The position numbers were made by a program, and so were the translations under genes. Shown piece by piece: positions 47,103 to 58,561 of a stretch of 64,000 nucleotides of DNA. This stretch comes from a virus, in the IMG/VR virus record IMGVR_UViG_3300026488_000011, positions 121,492 to 185,491 of that record; one strand, given 5' to 3'. A model generated the notes under the pieces. That model saw only the letters and a program-made list of their open reading frames with translations, searched no databases and was not told where the DNA came from. The stretch's first letter is position 1; each line of letters begins with the position of its first letter.

Positions 47103-47129
47103 AGATCAGCTAGAATCACTAGCTGATCT
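47103..47129 (-). terminator. Hairpin overlapping a stop codon
   Basis: AGATCAGCTAG-AATCA-CTAGCTGATCT. Confidence 0.7.
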
Positions 47130-48402
47130 CATCATAGATATCGAACTCTGTTAGTTCTACAGAACCCGACTTATGCATCTTCTTAAGGGATTCATTTAGA
47201 ATAGCCCCGGATGTCTCAGTTACTAATAACGCAATAGCATTCTCTTTACCTTTTAATTTAGAAGAAGTACAGTAAACGCAATAATGATGTTCTAAGTTGC
47301 AATACATAGGTGTTCTCAATTTTATTGTTTTACCTATCAGGTTCTTTACATTTTCCTCAGTTATTTCTACTGTTTTTCCATTATTGTCGAAGTAATATCT
47401 ATATAAGTAGTTCTTATAATTGTCTTCAGTTATGAGTGTAGGGATATAAAATTTAGTTCCACAATCTTTATCTAATATTTTTATATCGTTAGTAGCTCTT
47501 AAGGATACCTTTGCAGCTACTCCTCCTTTTTGTGTCTCAGCTCCCCTACTGTACGATGCTAATCTACTATCGTTAAACAATAACGCTAGTTTCTCTGGAT
47601 CTTTAGGATATCCTTCGTATAGAGATGTTTCTAACAGTTTAGCTTTATTACTAGGCGTAAACTCCATAGCTGTACCATACATTATAAACATTTTCTTTCT
47701 AGCACCTACTACTTTACCAGAGATAAGTTTACCATACGCAGGATCTCCCTCTAACCACTCCCTGTCGTATTCTAATAATTTCTTTTCAAGCTCTGCTACC
47801 ACTTTCTTATCTTCTAGAGCATGTGGTCCATACTTCTTCTTTAGCTCTTCGATTAACTGCTTTTTATACTCTTCAATTCCTTCGGGAGGCAGAGACGATT
47901 TCTCGGTAATTGACACCGAAAATACTCTATTAAAATTCATTATGTATAATCCTGTATCCATATACTTTTTATACTCGGATACCGTAATCTTCTTATCTGC
48001 TTCAGGATCATCGTCGTTTACTAAGTTTTTCTCTATAATAGATTCGATGTCTGAGAACTTCATCTCTTTATTCATATACGGTATCTTATTTCCAAAGCAT
48101 TCCGCTAGAAGTAGATAATTCATTATTAGTCTACCTATAGTGGTTTCAATATCTTCAGTAAGATTAGTTATCAAGCCTTTAGGAGCCTTAATTTTTTGCT
48201 TAGGAGTTAGGAAAGGTTTATTACTCTCTATGGGTATCTCAACCTCTTTATCGTTTACCTTTAAAAATAATTTGCCTTTTTCTTTTCTAATATAATTGTC
48301 CTCATGCCCGTCTACTACAATTGTAAACATATCTGTAATCCAGGTAAGGTCGTTAGGCAGACCATTATCAAATGCATATTTTAAATAATCAATTAGTTTC
48401 AT
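47119..48402 (-). CDS. Virion RNA polymerase beta-prime middle subunit (phiKZ gp80-like)
   Basis: TTIGRLIMN, SYSRGAETQKGG, DKDCGT, LRTPMYC...CVYC zinc site, ILNESLKKMH. Confidence 0.8.
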   Translation of the reverse strand: MKLIDYLKYAFDNGLPNDLTWITDMFTIVVDGHEDNYIRKEKGKLFLKVNDKEVEIPIESNKPFLTPKQKIKAPKGLITNLTEDIETTIGRLIMNYLLLAECFGNKIPYMNKEMKFSDIESIIEKNLVNDDDPEADKKITVSEYKKYMDTGLYIMNFNRVFSVSITEKSSLPPEGIEEYKKQLIEELKKKYGPHALEDKKVVAELEKKLLEYDREWLEGDPAYGKLISGKVVGARKKMFIMYGTAMEFTPSNKAKLLETSLYEGYPKDPEKLALLFNDSRLASYSRGAETQKGGVAAKVSLRATNDIKILDKDCGTKFYIPTLITEDNYKNYLYRYYFDNNGKTVEITEENVKNLIGKTIKLRTPMYCNLEHHYCVYCTSSKLKGKENAIALLVTETSGAILNESLKKMHKSGSVELTEFDIYDEIS

Positions 48403-49507: not shown

Positions 49508-49951
49508 ATGAGTAAAAAGAAAAAAATAAAAGTAGAAGATAATGAGAGATTAAAATGGGAAGATCTAGCAGATACTAGCCTAGCACTTAGACAGTCGTTA
49601 GGAGAAATCAACGCCAGTATTATGAAGTTATCAGAAAACCTAAAAGACGTGATTGACAGTAATCCTGATGTACAGCAAGTTTACAATGGAGTAGTTAAAT
49701 CTCTAGAAGATTTAGTTAATAAATGGGTCGAATTAAAAAAACTACACTCTACTGAAAAAGATGGGAAATACTATTACTGGATGGGTGAGTTAGATATAAA
49801 TAACGATAAAATGGTAGACCACTACATGAACTTATCATTAGCCTATGGAGGACTGACTAATGAGGTAGTTACACTAGCTAACACATCAATAGCAGCCCTA
49901 GCAGCTGAGATAGAAAAACATATGGATACAGGAGAAAAAGATGGAGAATGA
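49508..49951 (+). CDS. Coiled-coil hypothetical protein
   Basis: 147-aa ORF with AGGAG RBS, overlapping the next gene. Confidence 0.65.
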   Translation: MSKKKKIKVEDNERLKWEDLADTSLALRQSLGEINASIMKLSENLKDVIDSNPDVQQVYNGVVKSLEDLVNKWVELKKLHSTEKDGKYYYWMGELDINNDKMVDHYMNLSLAYGGLTNEVVTLANTSIAALAAEIEKHMDTGEKDGE

Positions 49952-51365
49952 TAAAAAGTTTTACGAGAATATTAAGGAGCTAGATCTAGAGAAAATTAGG
50001 AAGAAAGAAATAAAAATCATTCTTCCTGTTTCTAAATATTCAGACCTAGATAAATTCGTAAAAGAGTTATTAGAGAATGAAAACATTTTAGAAGACTTAA
50101 GTACTGACGATAAAGTAACAGTAGAATTGGTATTAGAGTCTATGGATAAAACAAATCCTGATGATATAGGAGCAAGAGATAGCATAGAAGATCTTAATGT
50201 CGAACCTGTCGTTAATGATAAAAAACTAGTCTTAAAAAATGTATCTACTAAACAAACGAGCAATAGTACTCTAGCTAAGCTTAAACTAGCAGAAGCATTA
50301 GGTATAGGAATGTTATCTCATGTACCGCTATGGCATAGCGGCTTCTGGGTAACATTAAAACCTCTTACTAAACAAGAGAAAATAAACTTGATGTTAAAAC
50401 TGTCTGAAGAATTTGGTAGAATAGGTAGACAAACCAACGGACTAGTCTTTAGTAATCACTCAGTTGTTTTTAACAAGATAATTATAAATAAAGTAAAAGA
50501 ACAAATCATTGACACTAGTCTATCCTTACCAGAGGGTGAAGATATCATGGATTATGTCAAACTACAAGATCTTTATCCTCTAATCTTAGGTTTACTTAAA
50601 ACAATGTATCCTAAAGGGGTGAATTATATCCTACAGTGTAAAAATAGTGCAGTGTTAGAAAACGACGTTCCTAAGTGCACATACAAAGCTGAGATAAATT
50701 TAGATCTAAGTAAGACCCTATGGGTGGATATGAATAAACTATCTACCGAGCATAAATCTCAAATGACTAAAAGAGCTAGTAAATCAGTCTCGATTGATGA
50801 GGTTAAGAAATATCAAGAAACATTAGATGGTAATGGAGAACTACCTATTAATATTAACTTAGAAGATACATCTGTAAGTATTGTTGTAGAAACTCCTAGT
50901 GTAAACAAATACTTAATGCATGGAGAATATTTTATTACCCTGCTACATGAAAAGGTTAATGAAATAATCAGGAGTAGTAAAGCATTTGAAGACGAGAAGG
51001 AAGCAGAGATTCTTATTCTAAATACGATGTACCTATCTACATACATTCACTATGTGAAACGAATAGTAGTAAACGGAAAAATTATGGATGACGTAGGAGA
51101 TCTACATAAGTCCCTAGAAATGTTATCTAACCAGCCTAAGATTAGAAAGAATATCAAATCTAAGATTACTGATTACATAGACAATAGTTTAGTAAGTATT
51201 GTAGGGATACCTGACTTTATGTGTCCTATTTGTGGATCTACACAAAAATCAGAAGAAGACAAGAGTAATTTCAAATCCTTTATACCATTAAACATGTTAG
51301 ACTATTTTTTTACCCATCTCGGGTACCAATATCAGATGTTATTGAAGGAATTGACAGAGAGCTAG
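49941..51365 (+). CDS. Putative baseplate-hub/tail assembly chaperone (T4 gp26/gp51-like) ending at a slippery site
   Basis: VPLWHSGFWVTLKP, C-terminal CPICG zinc ribbon, then ...LDYFF encoded over T TTT TTT. Confidence 0.55.
   Translation: MENDKKFYENIKELDLEKIRKKEIKIILPVSKYSDLDKFVKELLENENILEDLSTDDKVTVELVLESMDKTNPDDIGARDSIEDLNVEPVVNDKKLVLKNVSTKQTSNSTLAKLKLAEALGIGMLSHVPLWHSGFWVTLKPLTKQEKINLMLKLSEEFGRIGRQTNGLVFSNHSVVFNKIIINKVKEQIIDTSLSLPEGEDIMDYVKLQDLYPLILGLLKTMYPKGVNYILQCKNSAVLENDVPKCTYKAEINLDLSKTLWVDMNKLSTEHKSQMTKRASKSVSIDEVKKYQETLDGNGELPININLEDTSVSIVVETPSVNKYLMHGEYFITLLHEKVNEIIRSSKAFEDEKEAEILILNTMYLSTYIHYVKRIVVNGKIMDDVGDLHKSLEMLSNQPKIRKNIKSKITDYIDNSLVSIVGIPDFMCPICGSTQKSEEDKSNFKSFIPLNMLDYFFTHLGYQYQMLLKELTES
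51305..51311 (+). promoter_or_regulatory. Predicted programmed -1 ribosomal frameshift site
   Basis: Heptamer T TTT TTT in register with the 49941 frame; the -1 frame is open from 51269 to 51856. Confidence 0.65.
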
Positions 51366-51856
51366 TCGATTACATCCTAGAGAAGTACGAATCGGACTAT
51401 CACGTAACAGATAAATACATAGATCTGATTCGTCTTCCGTTGGTATCCGAGAAAGACAAAATAGGTCTAATAAATTTAGTATTACAGACAGTAAAAAAAT
51501 TTAGTCCTAAGACTATACTCAACTTTCCTGAATCCGATGTAATTAAGAATATCGCCTATGACAATATGATGAAATTACCGCAGCATATAGATAAACCTAG
51601 CTTAGCGACTGTAGAGTATAAAAAAGAAGAAGATCCGTTTCTAACTACGGATTATAATCAAACTGTATTAGAATACTTAGAGTTAGAAATCTATAAAAAT
51701 ACAGGATTGAGTCTAAATGAGTATATGAGACTAACGGAATACGAAATAGGCGTATTGAAGGACATGTTAGCTGTTAGAAACAGTAAGTTAAAACTTGAGA
51801 CAGAAGATTCTAAACGCGATTCGGGAAACTGGATAGACGAGACATTTGATCTATGA
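51311..51856 (+). CDS. -1 frame extension (GT-like C-terminal domain); annotated as 51440..51856 in the ORF track
   Basis: YPSRVPISDVIEGIDRELVDYILEK...GLSLNEYMRLTEYEIGVL. The TTG at 51440 has no SD-like sequence upstream. Confidence 0.6.
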   Translation, partial: YPSRVPISDVIEGIDRELVDYILEKYESDYHVTDKYIDLIRLPLVSEKDKIGLINLVLQTVKKFSPKTILNFPESDVIKNIAYDNMMKLPQHIDKPSLATVEYKKEEDPFLTTDYNQTVLEYLELEIYKNTGLSLNEYMRLTEYEIGVLKDMLAVRNSKLKLETEDSKRDSGNWIDETFDL

Positions 51857-51881
51857 GTATAGCGGGACTCCTGCTATACTC
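51855..51881 (+). terminator. Hairpin starting in a stop codon
   Basis: GAGTATAGCGGG-ACT-CCTGCTATACTC followed by TTT. Confidence 0.65.
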
Positions 51882-51909: not shown

Positions 51910-52599
51910 GTGGAAGTAAAGTTACCATTTAAGATATATGTAGATGTTGATTCTTTACTGGATACTAGGTTTGCTTTACTTAGTTTTCTAGATAGCGAAT
52001 TAGCTGGTAAAGCGTTATTGAAAGATTATTACCACAGTAGGTTAGTAGATAGTTTTGGGTTAATAGATTTTTATAGGTTTAAAGAATTTTATCGTTTTAG
52101 AAATAAGAAGTTGTTACCATTATCGGTAAAGACAAAGATTACAGATATCATAATACAAGAAATAAGTTATGTGACTCTAAACCCACATATTCGTGAAGTA
52201 GTGAAGATACCGACTCTAACTATTAATACGTTTCCTTATAGATTAACAGAATCTGAAAAAGAGAACTTAGTTAAAGCTATTAGTTCCACGCTACCTAACT
52301 TAGAATACAAAATAGAAGTAACTTATTTTAATCCGTATAAAGACTTAACTGATTTTGACGATTATTATTCTATTATTATGTATGATGGAATAGAGTGGTT
52401 AGAGAATCACATAGTGGTCAGTAACATGAAAGAAAAAAATAAACCTGATACCAGATTATACATACCAGCGTTATTAAGATCGTTTGTGCCTGATGATGAA
52501 AAGCTAATAAAACAAACCTTCGAAGACTTAAAAAATTATATGTCGTATTTCATAGATCTTAAACCTATAAACGTGGATTATTTTTGCTTACCAAAATAA
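51910..52599 (+). CDS. Conserved phiKZ-type hypothetical protein (HAD-like start)
   Basis: GTG start after AAGGAG; IYVDVDSLLDTR, LTINTFPY, IIMYD...WL. Confidence 0.6.
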   Translation: MEVKLPFKIYVDVDSLLDTRFALLSFLDSELAGKALLKDYYHSRLVDSFGLIDFYRFKEFYRFRNKKLLPLSVKTKITDIIIQEISYVTLNPHIREVVKIPTLTINTFPYRLTESEKENLVKAISSTLPNLEYKIEVTYFNPYKDLTDFDDYYSIIMYDGIEWLENHIVVSNMKEKNKPDTRLYIPALLRSFVPDDEKLIKQTFEDLKNYMSYFIDLKPINVDYFCLPK

Positions 52600-52606
52600 A
52601 AAAAGA

Positions 52607-52634
52607 ATACAGACCTAAATGTCTAGGTCTGTAT
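52607..52634. terminator. Hairpin between convergent genes
   Basis: ATACAGACCTA-AATGTC-TAGGTCTGTAT; contains the stop at 52615. Confidence 0.75.
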
Positions 52635-54288
52635 CTAAAACTTCTTTTTCTAAGATGTTATCGTCTTGGAATTTTCCTTCTAACATTGTTTCTAATAACG
52701 TCAATCTTTCTTTCATTTCATCATCTAGTAGAATTTTACCGGATTCTATGTCGACTTTTACAAACGGATTAATTCTAAATCTCGGTGAAGGCGACTTTTT
52801 CGTAAGATATAGAATGTTTCCAATGTAAAGATCCTCGGCATGCAAGTTTCTACTAAACGCAGGGAATGAAGCATTCTTATCTCTCTCTACTCCTCTACCT
52901 CTATTCTGGTCTTCTAGTATAGACGTAATCTTAAACGCATAGTTATCTCCAGAATAATCTACCGGCATTAATGCTATATTAGTACTGCCACCTTTAATAC
53001 TGCTAAAAAACTTTTTAGGAGTGAATTGTTTGTTGAAGACGTTTTCCACGTCTCTAGTAGTTATTCTTTCTCCTTTCTTGTTATACTCCTTTATAATTCC
53101 ATAGAGAGATTTGTTTATACTGGAGATTGTTTCAAACATTAGGTAATATAGTACGTCGATATACTTATTGTCTATCTGCGTAGATCTCTTTTCATAATTA
53201 AGAATTAACTTATCATAGTTCTTAATTATGTAGAAAATCAAATCATAAAAGTCATCAACATAGACGCCATTTTCTCTTAATTTTGACTCTATGATAGGAT
53301 CGATGTAGCTGTCGATCAAAGATAGATATTCCTCCATACTGGATAATATTTTTTCCTGTCTATAGTTGTTTCTGAAAATAGTCTTACCTAATAACATCAT
53401 CCAGAATTCTTTTTCAGGCATTTTACTTCTACCGCTTAAAATATCCGGTAAGAAATTACTGAACTGATTTAGTAGGTCAAATGTAGTAATTAAACTACCT
53501 ACAATGGTATCTACAACAGGACTTACTTTGTCTTTAGGTACTAGGATCTTAATATCATGTGGTGTGTAGTTATCATCATTTAGGATTCTAGGTTTCTTTC
53601 CTACTGTTTCATAGACCGTATAATCTTTTTTCATATCTTCAGGCACTATACCTTTTATAATTTTAGGTTTAAATCCTAGATATTTTTCAAATGCTCCATA
53701 AAAGCCATGCTTTACAAATAGATATAATGCCATAGGTACTTTCTGATTCGTACCTTCCACTATTTTGTAAGCATGAGCTGTTATTATGGATACAGGAGTC
53801 TTGAGTCCATCTTTTATAACGTTCTTCTCTATCCTTTTAAAGATTAATTTGTCTTTAAGTAATCTTAAGAATACTTCTTTAGTAGTAGGAGATATTACGT
53901 AGTCGGTCAATACAGGCACAATGCTGTATACCGCATCAGAAAGACTAATGATGGCACCTCTCTCCGTATACGGTAGATAAAGTACTCTATTAATGTCTTC
54001 TCCCCTGAAGTTAAAGCTGAATACCACCTTATAGAGAGTAGATTTAGACGTATCAAGAGTAGTCTTACCACTCCCTTTAAACTGCTCGTTGTAAGACTCA
54101 TATGGAGAAAGCATTCTCCAACCATTATAACTAAGACCTATTTCTGGTGGTAAGGTAGCTACTCCTGATTTTATAATGCTGTCTAGATAGTATGGTATTT
54201 TTTCCACCAATGGTCTTACTAGGCCATCCATTGCTTTGTGGTTGATAGGCTTTCTGACTTTATCTACGGTCTTTTTATTTAAAGACAT
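52615..54288 (-). CDS. Non-virion RNA polymerase beta N-terminal subunit (phiKZ gp123-like)
   Basis: LYLPY..., YSIVPVLTD.VIS, FLRLLKDKLIF, KYIDVLYYLM; three genes downstream of the MCP as in phiKZ gp120-gp123. Confidence 0.75.
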   Translation of the reverse strand: MSLNKKTVDKVRKPINHKAMDGLVRPLVEKIPYYLDSIIKSGVATLPPEIGLSYNGWRMLSPYESYNEQFKGSGKTTLDTSKSTLYKVVFSFNFRGEDINRVLYLPYTERGAIISLSDAVYSIVPVLTDYVISPTTKEVFLRLLKDKLIFKRIEKNVIKDGLKTPVSIITAHAYKIVEGTNQKVPMALYLFVKHGFYGAFEKYLGFKPKIIKGIVPEDMKKDYTVYETVGKKPRILNDDNYTPHDIKILVPKDKVSPVVDTIVGSLITTFDLLNQFSNFLPDILSGRSKMPEKEFWMMLLGKTIFRNNYRQEKILSSMEEYLSLIDSYIDPIIESKLRENGVYVDDFYDLIFYIIKNYDKLILNYEKRSTQIDNKYIDVLYYLMFETISSINKSLYGIIKEYNKKGERITTRDVENVFNKQFTPKKFFSSIKGGSTNIALMPVDYSGDNYAFKITSILEDQNRGRGVERDKNASFPAFSRNLHAEDLYIGNILYLTKKSPSPRFRINPFVKVDIESGKILLDDEMKERLTLLETMLEGKFQDDNILEKEVLDTDLDI

Positions 54289-56449: not shown

Positions 56450-58561
56450 TTAAACAGTTTTCATTTGTACTGGAACTTTTCCAAGCACTGCATCGATATT
56501 TGTGATGTTGAATACACCTATTACTGGTAGGTTAGGTACATGTCTATATCTTGGCATAGTTGTAAGTTCAGTTCTTGTTGCACCGTTTACAGTTTTAAGA
56601 ACGTTAATTACTAACTCTGGGCTCCAGAAGCATTGACCGAAGTTTAATGGATTTGGTTCTTTATTTCTTGCATCGTCAAATACACCGAATGAGAATACTA
56701 CTTTACCTCTGATTAGTGGGTTAGCAGATGTTCTAATTTCATAGTTGAATTGTGCATCGTTTGCAATTCCACCATCTTCTAGTAAGAATTGACCAATTAC
56801 TGGATCTGTACCAATAATAATTGTAGGTTTAAGATCTGGTCTAAGTGTGCTTAATGCAATTCCATAGTTAGATTCTAGGAATGCTCTAGTAGCTGCATTT
56901 TTGATTTTTAATACAAGAGCTTTTCTAATGTCTTCATCTCTAGTATTGCTGTTAATAGAATCTACTAGTTGAGTTAAGTCTAATGTTTGTTCATCGAACC
57001 ATTTATTAACTAGTTTATCAGAAACACCAGTCATTTTCACGTCGATTGTTTTAGCTGTTCTTAGGTAATCGATAAGACCAGTTAATACTTTAAATCCGCT
57101 CATGTTCATTTTCGCTCTAGTAGCGTTGATTTGTGTATTTAAATATGTTGCGTCACCATCGTCACCATTTATTACTACTGGCAATTGTACAGTAATACCA
57201 GTTCTATAAGGTACTGTAAATACTTCTGTGTAAACATCAGCTGTTACCAATAGACCTCTCATTCTTGCGTTTGTGTTTGTTAGGTAAGCTTCTACTTCAA
57301 AACCTTCCGCTTTAAGAGTTTTGAACACATCTTCAAATTGTCCGTAAACTTCAGTTGTAGGATCTACAATGTTTCCTGCTGCATCAATAACTTGTACTAA
57401 TCTGAATTCGTTTACGTATACTGAAATGTCTCCGTATTGAGTGTTTCCACTACCGCTCATTACTAGTTTAAGTTTAGCTGTATAACCTTCTGGTAATCCA
57501 CCTAAGATTTGTGAATCAGCACCAGTAGCTGTTTTAGTCTCACCAGCGATCATTGCAAGATCTTCACTACTAAATGTAAGGATTAAATCTTTGCTATGGT
57601 CTCTTGTGCTGTATGTAAAGAATGCTGGTAATTGACTTAGATCATGTTTGAAGTATTCTGTAACTTCATTACCTTCACTATCTTTACCAGTTAGGCTGCT
57701 GTAAAGTGCAGTGATTTTCACATTAGCATCAAGTGCATCAGTTTCATCCATAGTTCCTCTAGCTAACATGCTATCAGTTTGAGAAATACCTAATAGGTTT
57801 ACTTCTTGACCAACTTTAAGAGGTGCTGTAGTTACGCTCTCACCATTATAGTTAACTACTGTTCTAAGTGCATCTACAAATTTGTCTGCTGATTGAGTTC
57901 TATAAACAGGAACTAATCTGTTTTTATCCACATCAATTTTCTCAGGATCATTTACAATTTTAACCAATGGTGTTTTATCAAACATAGTTTTGTTTACTGC
58001 ACCATCAATACTTCTTGTAACCTCTTTGATTACGCTGTCAATAACTGCTGTTACAGTAGCACCTGCTGATTTAGGGTCTACAGGAATGATTGGGAAGAAT
58101 AGTTCTACTACAGGGTCTTGTTGCATTACCATTGTGTTATATAGTACTGTGAAGAATACTGATGGTTTTACATTCTGACCATCGAATGCTTCAAAACCTG
58201 CACTAATATCATCTCCATCGAAAATTGTAGCATCAATTACTACAGCTTCGTTACCTACTTCTGGTAGGCTTCTGTTCTTAACGATTGTTTTAATTACTTC
58301 AGGTGTAGCTGTTGCGTATAGAGCTGCTTTTTTAGCTGCTTCTGCTACGTGTTCAGGAATTTTACCACCTTCAAGTTCGATTGTTTCAAAAGCTGCTTCA
58401 ATAGCGCTTTCTACAGTCGATGCTGATTCTCTAGCTGCTTCTGCAGTAACTGCATCAACGCCTTCAAATCCAGTTAAAGCTAATGCTGCATTTTTATTAG
58501 CTGATCCAGCCACAGCATCAAGTTCTCTCTTTAATACTTCTCCAAGTTTTCTAATGTTCAT
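56450..58561 (-). CDS. Major capsid protein (phiKZ gp120-like)
   Basis: 703 aa; Ala/Glu-rich propeptide with GFE|AFD, Q...VELFFP.I, N.R.RG, LNFG...W.PE.V, PRY.H..NLPV; synteny with DnaB and the RNAP subunit. Confidence 0.85.
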   Translation of the reverse strand: MNIRKLGEVLKRELDAVAGSANKNAALALTGFEGVDAVTAEAARESASTVESAIEAAFETIELEGGKIPEHVAEAAKKAALYATATPEVIKTIVKNRSLPEVGNEAVVIDATIFDGDDISAGFEAFDGQNVKPSVFFTVLYNTMVMQQDPVVELFFPIIPVDPKSAGATVTAVIDSVIKEVTRSIDGAVNKTMFDKTPLVKIVNDPEKIDVDKNRLVPVYRTQSADKFVDALRTVVNYNGESVTTAPLKVGQEVNLLGISQTDSMLARGTMDETDALDANVKITALYSSLTGKDSEGNEVTEYFKHDLSQLPAFFTYSTRDHSKDLILTFSSEDLAMIAGETKTATGADSQILGGLPEGYTAKLKLVMSGSGNTQYGDISVYVNEFRLVQVIDAAGNIVDPTTEVYGQFEDVFKTLKAEGFEVEAYLTNTNARMRGLLVTADVYTEVFTVPYRTGITVQLPVVINGDDGDATYLNTQINATRAKMNMSGFKVLTGLIDYLRTAKTIDVKMTGVSDKLVNKWFDEQTLDLTQLVDSINSNTRDEDIRKALVLKIKNAATRAFLESNYGIALSTLRPDLKPTIIIGTDPVIGQFLLEDGGIANDAQFNYEIRTSANPLIRGKVVFSFGVFDDARNKEPNPLNFGQCFWSPELVINVLKTVNGATRTELTTMPRYRHVPNLPVIGVFNITNIDAVLGKVPVQMKTV

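Follow-up and report, generated by a model that had tools for sequence, protein, structure and literature searches.

A 64,000-nucleotide stretch of viral DNA (positions 121,492 to 185,491 of IMG/VR record IMGVR_UViG_3300026488_000011, hereafter the window) carries at 49941-51856 the counterpart of two consecutive genes of the jumbo phage phiKZ, gp77 and the 80-codon gp76.4. Sequence comparison indicates that these two very probably constitute one recoded gene, in which a -1 slip at 51305-51311 would generate products of 474 and 638 residues that may act as a non-virion assembly factor. The window (GC content 33%) is a portion of a 185-kb IMG/VR contig with terminal repeats.

We propose that most ribosomes would read 49941-51365 and release the protein of 474 residues, and that a fraction would slip back by one base with tRNA-Phe on U_UUU_UUU at 51305-51311, continue with UAC CCA... 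to 51856 and release the protein of 638 residues. In the long form the last 17 residues would thereby give way to a flexible linker plus about 130 residues that form a conserved helical domain. Such a pair could be two forms of an assembly factor, produced in a constant proportion, the longer one carrying the extension as an additional module for binding.

Probable slip site and open -1 frame in the window

The 474-residue open reading frame (ORF; 49941-51365, plus strand) encodes a member of phrog_4585 (E-value 1.6e-66) and ends in ...CPICG...NMLDYFFTHLGYQYQMLLKELTES. Its codons from 51303 onwards are TAT TTT TTT ACC, which places T_TTT_TTT (51305-51311) in the X_XXY_YYZ register on Phe456-Phe457. 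The -1 frame is free of stop codons from 51269 to 51856, and the part that would be read after the site (51311-51856) comprises 181 codons followed by TGA (51854-51856). Residues 1-457 together with these 181 add up to 638 residues; the junction of the slipped product would read ...DYFF-YPSRVPISDVIEGID, the extension beginning with YPSRVPISDV.... Both frames are used in the zone 51312-51365, where the 0 frame encodes the 17-residue tail THLG...TES and the -1 frame the start of the extension (YPSR...). A first-pass annotation of this DNA, made from the letters alone, had proposed a programmed -1 shift at the Phe-Phe codons, joining the 474-residue ORF to a frame that lacks a start of its own. 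Its coordinates, heptamer register, open -1 frame and product length were all found to be correct, and the proposed shift is strongly supported by the comparison of homologous loci described below.

The run of seven T's is not remarkable on its own. The window contains 26 such runs against 46.8 expected from shuffled sequences, and 99 of 100 shuffles equal or exceed the observed number. It seems that this AT-rich genome avoids homopolymer runs. What is remarkable is the open -1 frame. Stop codons make up 13.8% of the -1-frame codons within window genes (13,263 codons), and the median length of stop-free -1 stretches in these genes is 4 codons, the longest being 58. At this stop rate, the probability of finding 43 open codons up to the TTG at 51440 is about 2e-3, and that of finding 181 open codons about 2e-12.

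This TTG (51440-51442) is where an ORF finder begins the downstream ORF, and a conventional interpretation would consist of two ordinary genes, the second of which is translated from its own start, the T-run being a chance encoding of a conserved Phe-Phe pair. The public records examined indeed annotate two genes at the locus; even so, we consider this interpretation quite improbable. A Shine-Dalgarno sequence is absent at 51440, as the first-pass annotation had noticed, although AGGAG precedes the starts at 49508, 49941 and 51910, and the TTG is probably not a real start. Moreover, the first 44 residues of the extension, for which there is no upstream start codon, are 45% identical to those of the nearest relative, the IMG/VR locus L008 (pairwise E-value 3e-13). 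As this is the same level of identity as in the rest of the extension, the start-less stretch would be translated. The case against an independent start in the window therefore rests on the missing Shine-Dalgarno sequence, on the stop-free and conserved 44 residues and on the pattern across the family.

Conservation of the locus and alternatives to a ribosomal shift

A tblastn search yielded matches in 217 phage records, in which all named phages are jumbo phages; their hosts include Pseudomonas, Erwinia, Salmonella, Ralstonia, Vibrio, Xanthomonas, Bacillus and others. Megablast of the window locus against phage records gave no match. Related loci were not recovered with a single protein as query but were found when an alignment served as query, and the site was read in phages AgentSmith, RAY, LucasX and phiKZ and in 75 IMG/VR loci obtained in this way. 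After removal of duplicates 72 distinct loci remained, with a GC content of 25-59%: phiKZ gp77/gp76.4, Erwinia phage RAY gp267/gp266, a Bacillus phage and 69 IMG/VR contigs. Counts of heptamers were taken over 76 loci, with duplicates still included.

Across the family, the site and the two frames were found to be conserved at both the nucleotide and the protein level, so that the homologues retain the T-run as well as the open -1 frame, the comparison that the first-pass annotation had asked for. In each of the 72 loci, 5-8 consecutive T's lie on the same pair of codons. A complete in-register heptamer is present in 59 of the 76 loci (T_TTT_TTT in 42, T_TTT_TTC in 16 and T_TTT_TTA in one), and the others have shorter T-runs on identical codons (N_TTT_TTT, T_TTT_A.. 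or G_TTT_TTC). The first Phe codon is TTT in 72 of 72 loci, as compared to 40% TTT (510 of 1268 Phe codons) elsewhere in these genes. In 60 of the 72 loci this codon is preceded by a T, even though the residue at that position varies over ten amino acids. Both features argue against a chance encoding, since they point to selection for TTT and for a T at the preceding wobble position. Members of the T4 gp26 family, which lacks a downstream frame, likewise conserve the Phe-Phe pair, and this would fit the assumption of two ordinary genes. The pair in T4 gene 26 is, however, encoded by TTC TTT, and thus the Phe-Phe motif alone does not require a T-run.

Beyond the site, the 0 frame reaches a stop within 8-37 codons (median 14) and the +1 frame after a median of only 10, whereas the -1 frame is open for 150-192 codons (median 164) in every one of the 72 loci. 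In 50 of these the -1 frame contains no ATG, GTG or TTG ahead of the first conserved motif of the extension, and in 70 it contains no start bearing a Shine-Dalgarno-like sequence in this region, which is again difficult to reconcile with independent initiation. The 0-frame tail has 37 codons rather than about 14 in three IMG/VR loci of one sub-lineage (L049, L059 and L061), where the two frames overlap over a much longer distance.

Existing annotations of the downstream frame differ between phages. In phiKZ (NC_004629, L007, 2943-3440, minus strand) gp76.4 is annotated as 80 codons from an internal ATG. The -1 frame is open there for 165 codons from the T_TTT_TTT of gp77, and the motifs HILHPNFG and AY..DY lie upstream of the annotated ATG. 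In Erwinia phage RAY, gp266 is annotated from an ATG within gp267, 136 nucleotides ahead of the gp267 stop. A protein of 686 residues from phage phiEaH2 was considered as a natural in-frame fusion of the two parts and rejected, as it has a longer N-terminus, the usual T_TTT_TTC and a separate -1 frame.

The extension diverges rapidly. With the window extension alone, tblastn gave no match in phage records, because the sequence diverges too fast for pairwise search; BLASTP of the window extension against that of phiKZ gives an E-value of 0.15. Nevertheless, 70 extension sequences could be aligned, and they share the motifs HV..FG, AY..YGI..H, PL..V...ED and GLS..EF..LP. A hidden Markov model (HMM) built without the window sequence and its two nearest relatives recognises the window extension with an E-value of 8e-16, as opposed to at least 0.02 for shuffled sequences. 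By these sequence criteria the extension is a real conserved domain, the copy in the window included. None of the 70 sequences matches a Pfam family at an E-value of 0.01 or below.

The extension profile matched 1865 representative clusters in a library of 1.84 billion proteins. All of the 150 clusters listed had been called as ORFs of 106-186 residues, and their matches start at profile positions 1 to 52. This scatter arises because gene callers take the first available start codon, and it implies that the extension has no fixed start, contrary to what would be expected of an ordinary second gene. In-frame fusions were not found among these 150 best relatives; it is therefore the split layout, and not a simple fusion, that is kept.

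Such conservation also bears on the quality of the sequence. Homopolymers are error-prone and the window derives from a metagenomic contig, so that the frame break could be imagined to be an assembly or sequencing error, or a sign of gene decay. We regard this as extremely improbable, as the identical frame change is found in all 72 independent loci, including the isolates phiKZ, RAY, LucasX and AgentSmith, both frames are open and conserved, and no in-frame fusion occurs among the best extension relatives mentioned above.

A more serious alternative, albeit still an unlikely one, is transcriptional slippage, in which an RNA polymerase, probably the phage's own multisubunit enzyme, would add one U on the T-run and ordinary translation would then produce a long protein with an extra Phe. 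Homopolymers of up to 8 T's form the site, the gene adjoins polymerase subunit genes, and a stimulatory RNA structure is not conserved, all of which suit this mechanism. For bacterial polymerases to slip efficiently, runs of about 8-9 or more bases are needed. In the gp77 family the runs have 5-8 T's and are never longer, and 24 of the 76 loci have just 5 or 6. A ribosomal shift is favoured because the runs never exceed 8 and have only 5-6 T's in a third of the loci. The T ahead of the first TTT codon in 60 of 72 loci, and the position of the run always over an in-frame TTT, would suit re-pairing of a tRNA as well; this is not decisive, as coding in two frames fixes the register too. The two mechanisms predict different junctions, namely ...DYFFYPSR with two Phe residues for the ribosomal and ...DYFFFYPSR with three for the transcriptional shift.

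Several observations weigh against a programmed ribosomal shift. A conserved stimulator was not found in the 60 bases downstream of the site in homologues, the mean folding z-score being -0.5 compared to -0.2 in a control region; values below -2 occur in 14% of the downstream and 3% of the control sequences. A hairpin of four pairs at +4 to +15 is present in only 17% of the loci, and no obvious Shine-Dalgarno-like element was seen upstream. Twelve loci have a hexamer or shorter site (N_TTT_TTT, T_TTT_A.. or G_TTT_TTC), on which slippage of a single tRNA would be needed. The HMM match in the window extension (residues 54-170) lies downstream of the TTG at 51440, as it might if that codon were a start, and the argument from domain boundaries is weaker here than in most relatives. 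Finally, the searchable literature contains no junction peptide, reporter assay or ribosome profiling for the shifted product.

As to the window itself, the first-pass annotation had pointed to a small stem next to the heptamer. This five-pair hairpin (UACCC-AUCUC-GGGUA, 51311-51325) does exist in the minimum-energy fold (z = -1.3 for the surrounding 80 nucleotides), and in this respect the observation holds. As a stimulator it fares less well. Because its first base is the last of the heptamer, the stem would lie within the ribosome when slippage takes place. In L008, the nearest relative, the pairing is disrupted, and the stem is probably incidental. A stimulatory element is not obligatory for programmed -1 frameshift sites.

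The two predicted products and their possible function

In the gp77 family four Cys residues are conserved (233, 246, 428 and 431 in the window protein), followed by F456 and F457. The 474-residue body is modelled by AlphaFold with a mean predicted local distance difference test (pLDDT) of 90.3 and a predicted template modelling score (pTM) of 0.90. The last helix of the model spans residues 452-473 and the slip site lies at its start. In the short form this helix is completed by the 17-residue 0-frame tail, and the long form would therefore lose most of it. The model of the extension (pLDDT 76 overall, above 90 for residues 120-180) shows a linker with little order and an all-helical domain whose last helix has 37 residues; no fold match was found for it in the PDB with Foldseek or VIA-align.

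In a Foldseek search of BFVD with the body the gp77 family itself ranks first. The next matches are about 15 proteins of 217-312 residues named baseplate hub assembly protein, chaperone or subunit, with E-values of 2.7e-5 to 1e-3 and target-normalised TM-scores of 0.43-0.58; over the gp26/gp51-like matches as a whole the E-values run from 1e-6 to 1e-3. The gp26 family of T4-like phages has a consensus ending in ...CxxCG...EFFKL (C82, C84, C187, C190, F204 and F205), and hhalign pairs the IP..CP.CG motif of the gp77 family with residues 181-195 of T4 gp26. The resemblance of the CxxC...FF ending to T4 gp26 that the first-pass annotation had noted is thus borne out by the consensus, the motif pairing and the BFVD matches. 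PF12322, to which T4 gp26 and gp51 score 215 and 178 bits, matches two of 70 gp77-family members (best E-value 5.2e-5). On the basis of these models and motifs, the body can be linked, weakly, to baseplate-hub assembly chaperones of the gp26/gp51 type.

In a review of the T4 tail, gp26 and gp51 are described as hub assembly chaperones, gp51 being absent from the particle. In the phiKZ record gp79-81 are labelled structural and gp77, which may be compared with gp51 in this respect, is not. As the body is most like chaperones of this type, the pair is read as a non-virion assembly factor, and a hub or baseplate assembly factor in two forms is our best functional guess. In the table of a phiKZ transposon screen, taken here without its column headers, PHIKZ077 and PHIKZ076.4 appear free of insertions in one file and to have few in another, and adjoining small genes have thousands of reads. 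The name 'gp77' is used for unrelated genes in the structure paper on Goslar and the transposon paper on PCH45.

Not all results agree with this assignment. In PDB searches with Foldseek and VIA-align the models of both body and extension match helix-hairpins or coiled coils alone (Z up to 6.3), and these searches yielded no experimentally determined gp26/gp51-family structure with which the fold could be compared. The window protein has no Pfam match at an E-value of 0.1 or below, PF12322 included, and nothing relevant in NCBIfam. The hhalign comparison of the gp77 and gp26 alignments is not significant (probability 3.5%), and an HMM made from T4-proper gp26 sequences does not recover gp77 proteins. 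In addition, the gp77 homologue of phage Churi is among the proteins detected early in infection, which fits poorly with a purely late role in assembly.

Genomic context and comparison with known systems

A small gene encoding 147 residues (49508-49951, plus strand) with AGGAG ahead of its ATG precedes the gp77-like gene in the window, at the position of gp78 in phiKZ; the equivalent position is also occupied by a small gene in RAY and LucasX. BLASTP detected no significant similarity between the window protein and phiKZ gp78. The last 11 bases of this gene, including its stop, overlap the beginning of the gp77-like gene with its ATG (49941-49951, ATGGAGAATGA), which suggests translational coupling, and the two genes probably belong to one operon. 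A terminator-like hairpin of 12 pairs (six of them G-C) followed by a T-rich tail (51855-51881, plus strand) begins exactly at the stop of the -1 frame and marks the end of the transcription unit; in phiKZ a hairpin and T-run likewise directly follow the stop of gp76.4. The 53 bases between this -1 stop and the GTG of the next gene at 51910 contain the AGGAG of that gene. Other neighbours encode the virion RNA polymerase subunit (47119-48402), a polymerase (52615-54288) and the major head protein (56450-58561).

The arrangement resembles that of lambda G/GT and P2 E/E+E', where ribosomes slip by -1 shortly before an upstream morphogenesis ORF ends, so that a short product is accompanied by a less abundant long one with an added C-terminal domain. 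The slip site of P2 is T_TTT_TTG, close to the T_TTT_TTT and T_TTT_TTC of the gp77 family. In these systems, as in the gp77 family, even very divergent phages have retained the arrangement despite drift of the sequences. Xu, Hendrix and Duda are said to have described in 2004 the conservation of such a -1 frameshift in the tail assembly genes of long-tailed phages. The first-pass annotation had called the pair G/GT-like, which as a statement of kinship was not supported. The body has 474 residues, three to four times the size of G-type proteins (about 100-150), and neither body nor extension shows a detectable sequence or fold relationship, including any Pfam family. The pair is not located between tail tube and tape-measure genes, its neighbours being polymerase and head-protein genes and not a tape-measure or tube gene. 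In a phiKZ transposon sequencing preprint the likely tape measure is orf181, which lies about a hundred gene numbers from gp77. G/GT and gp77 thus appear to share a logic in apparently unrelated genes, and the likeness holds only as an analogy.

With T4 gp26 (208 residues) and gp51 (249 residues), both members of PF12322, the gp77 family shares two Cys pairs, including the C-terminal CxxC, and a Phe-Phe near the end. The window protein has twice their length and carries an additional N-terminal region. Neither a slippery run nor a -1 extension is present in T4 gene 26, and the extension of gp77 has no counterpart in gp51. T4 uses two paralogous proteins, as compared to two forms of one gene at the gp77 locus, and genes 26 and 51 lie among the hub genes 25, 27, 28 and 29, unlike gp77. 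In the T4 genome (NC_000866, L086, 1503-2929) gp26 and gp51 are divergently transcribed neighbours that both match PF12322 over the full length of the family, and are therefore paralogues. A shift from T4 gene 26 into gene 25, which follows in the -1 frame with an overlap of one base, was considered and ruled out, the Phe codons being TTC TTT without a slippery run.

In dnaX of E. coli, which encodes tau and gamma, a -1 shift leads to a shorter product, and it is an upstream Shine-Dalgarno-like element and a downstream hairpin that drive this shift. The gp77 locus is similar in having a homopolymer-type heptamer in what may be an essential gene, from which two proteins would be made at a set ratio. 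It differs in that the shift would lengthen the product and in that no conserved stimulator was found.

The searchable full-text literature on phiKZ, jumbo phages and Chimalliviridae contains no description of a frameshift in gp77, in agreement with the statement of the first-pass annotation that it had not been described for phiKZ-like phages. In a broader and more speculative form, which we put forward tentatively and think somewhat less probable than its negation, all nucleus-forming jumbo phages and some relatives with Gram-positive hosts would depend on this unannotated recoding event in an essential core gene. This gene would encode a gp26/gp51-like hub factor made at a fixed ratio of short to long form by a bare U-run without an RNA stimulator. 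The helical domain of the long form would recruit a partner, such as a giant tape-measure-like protein or the hub, and the principle of G/GT would have been reinvented independently.

In the records of phiKZ and its relatives, which are among the most studied giant phages, the locus appears as two genes, a long one and a short 'hypothetical protein' whose annotated start varies. Recognition of one recoded gene would correct the annotation of a core gene across hundreds of phage records, 217 of which were matched here. It points to an assembly factor with two isoforms in a tail whose hub assembly is not understood. The roughly 70 divergent U-run sites without obvious stimulators, from hosts of 25-59% GC, would form a natural set for studying how bare heptamers set frameshift levels. 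Furthermore, the gp77 family would add a second conserved class of frameshifts in phage morphogenesis genes, beside that of G/GT.

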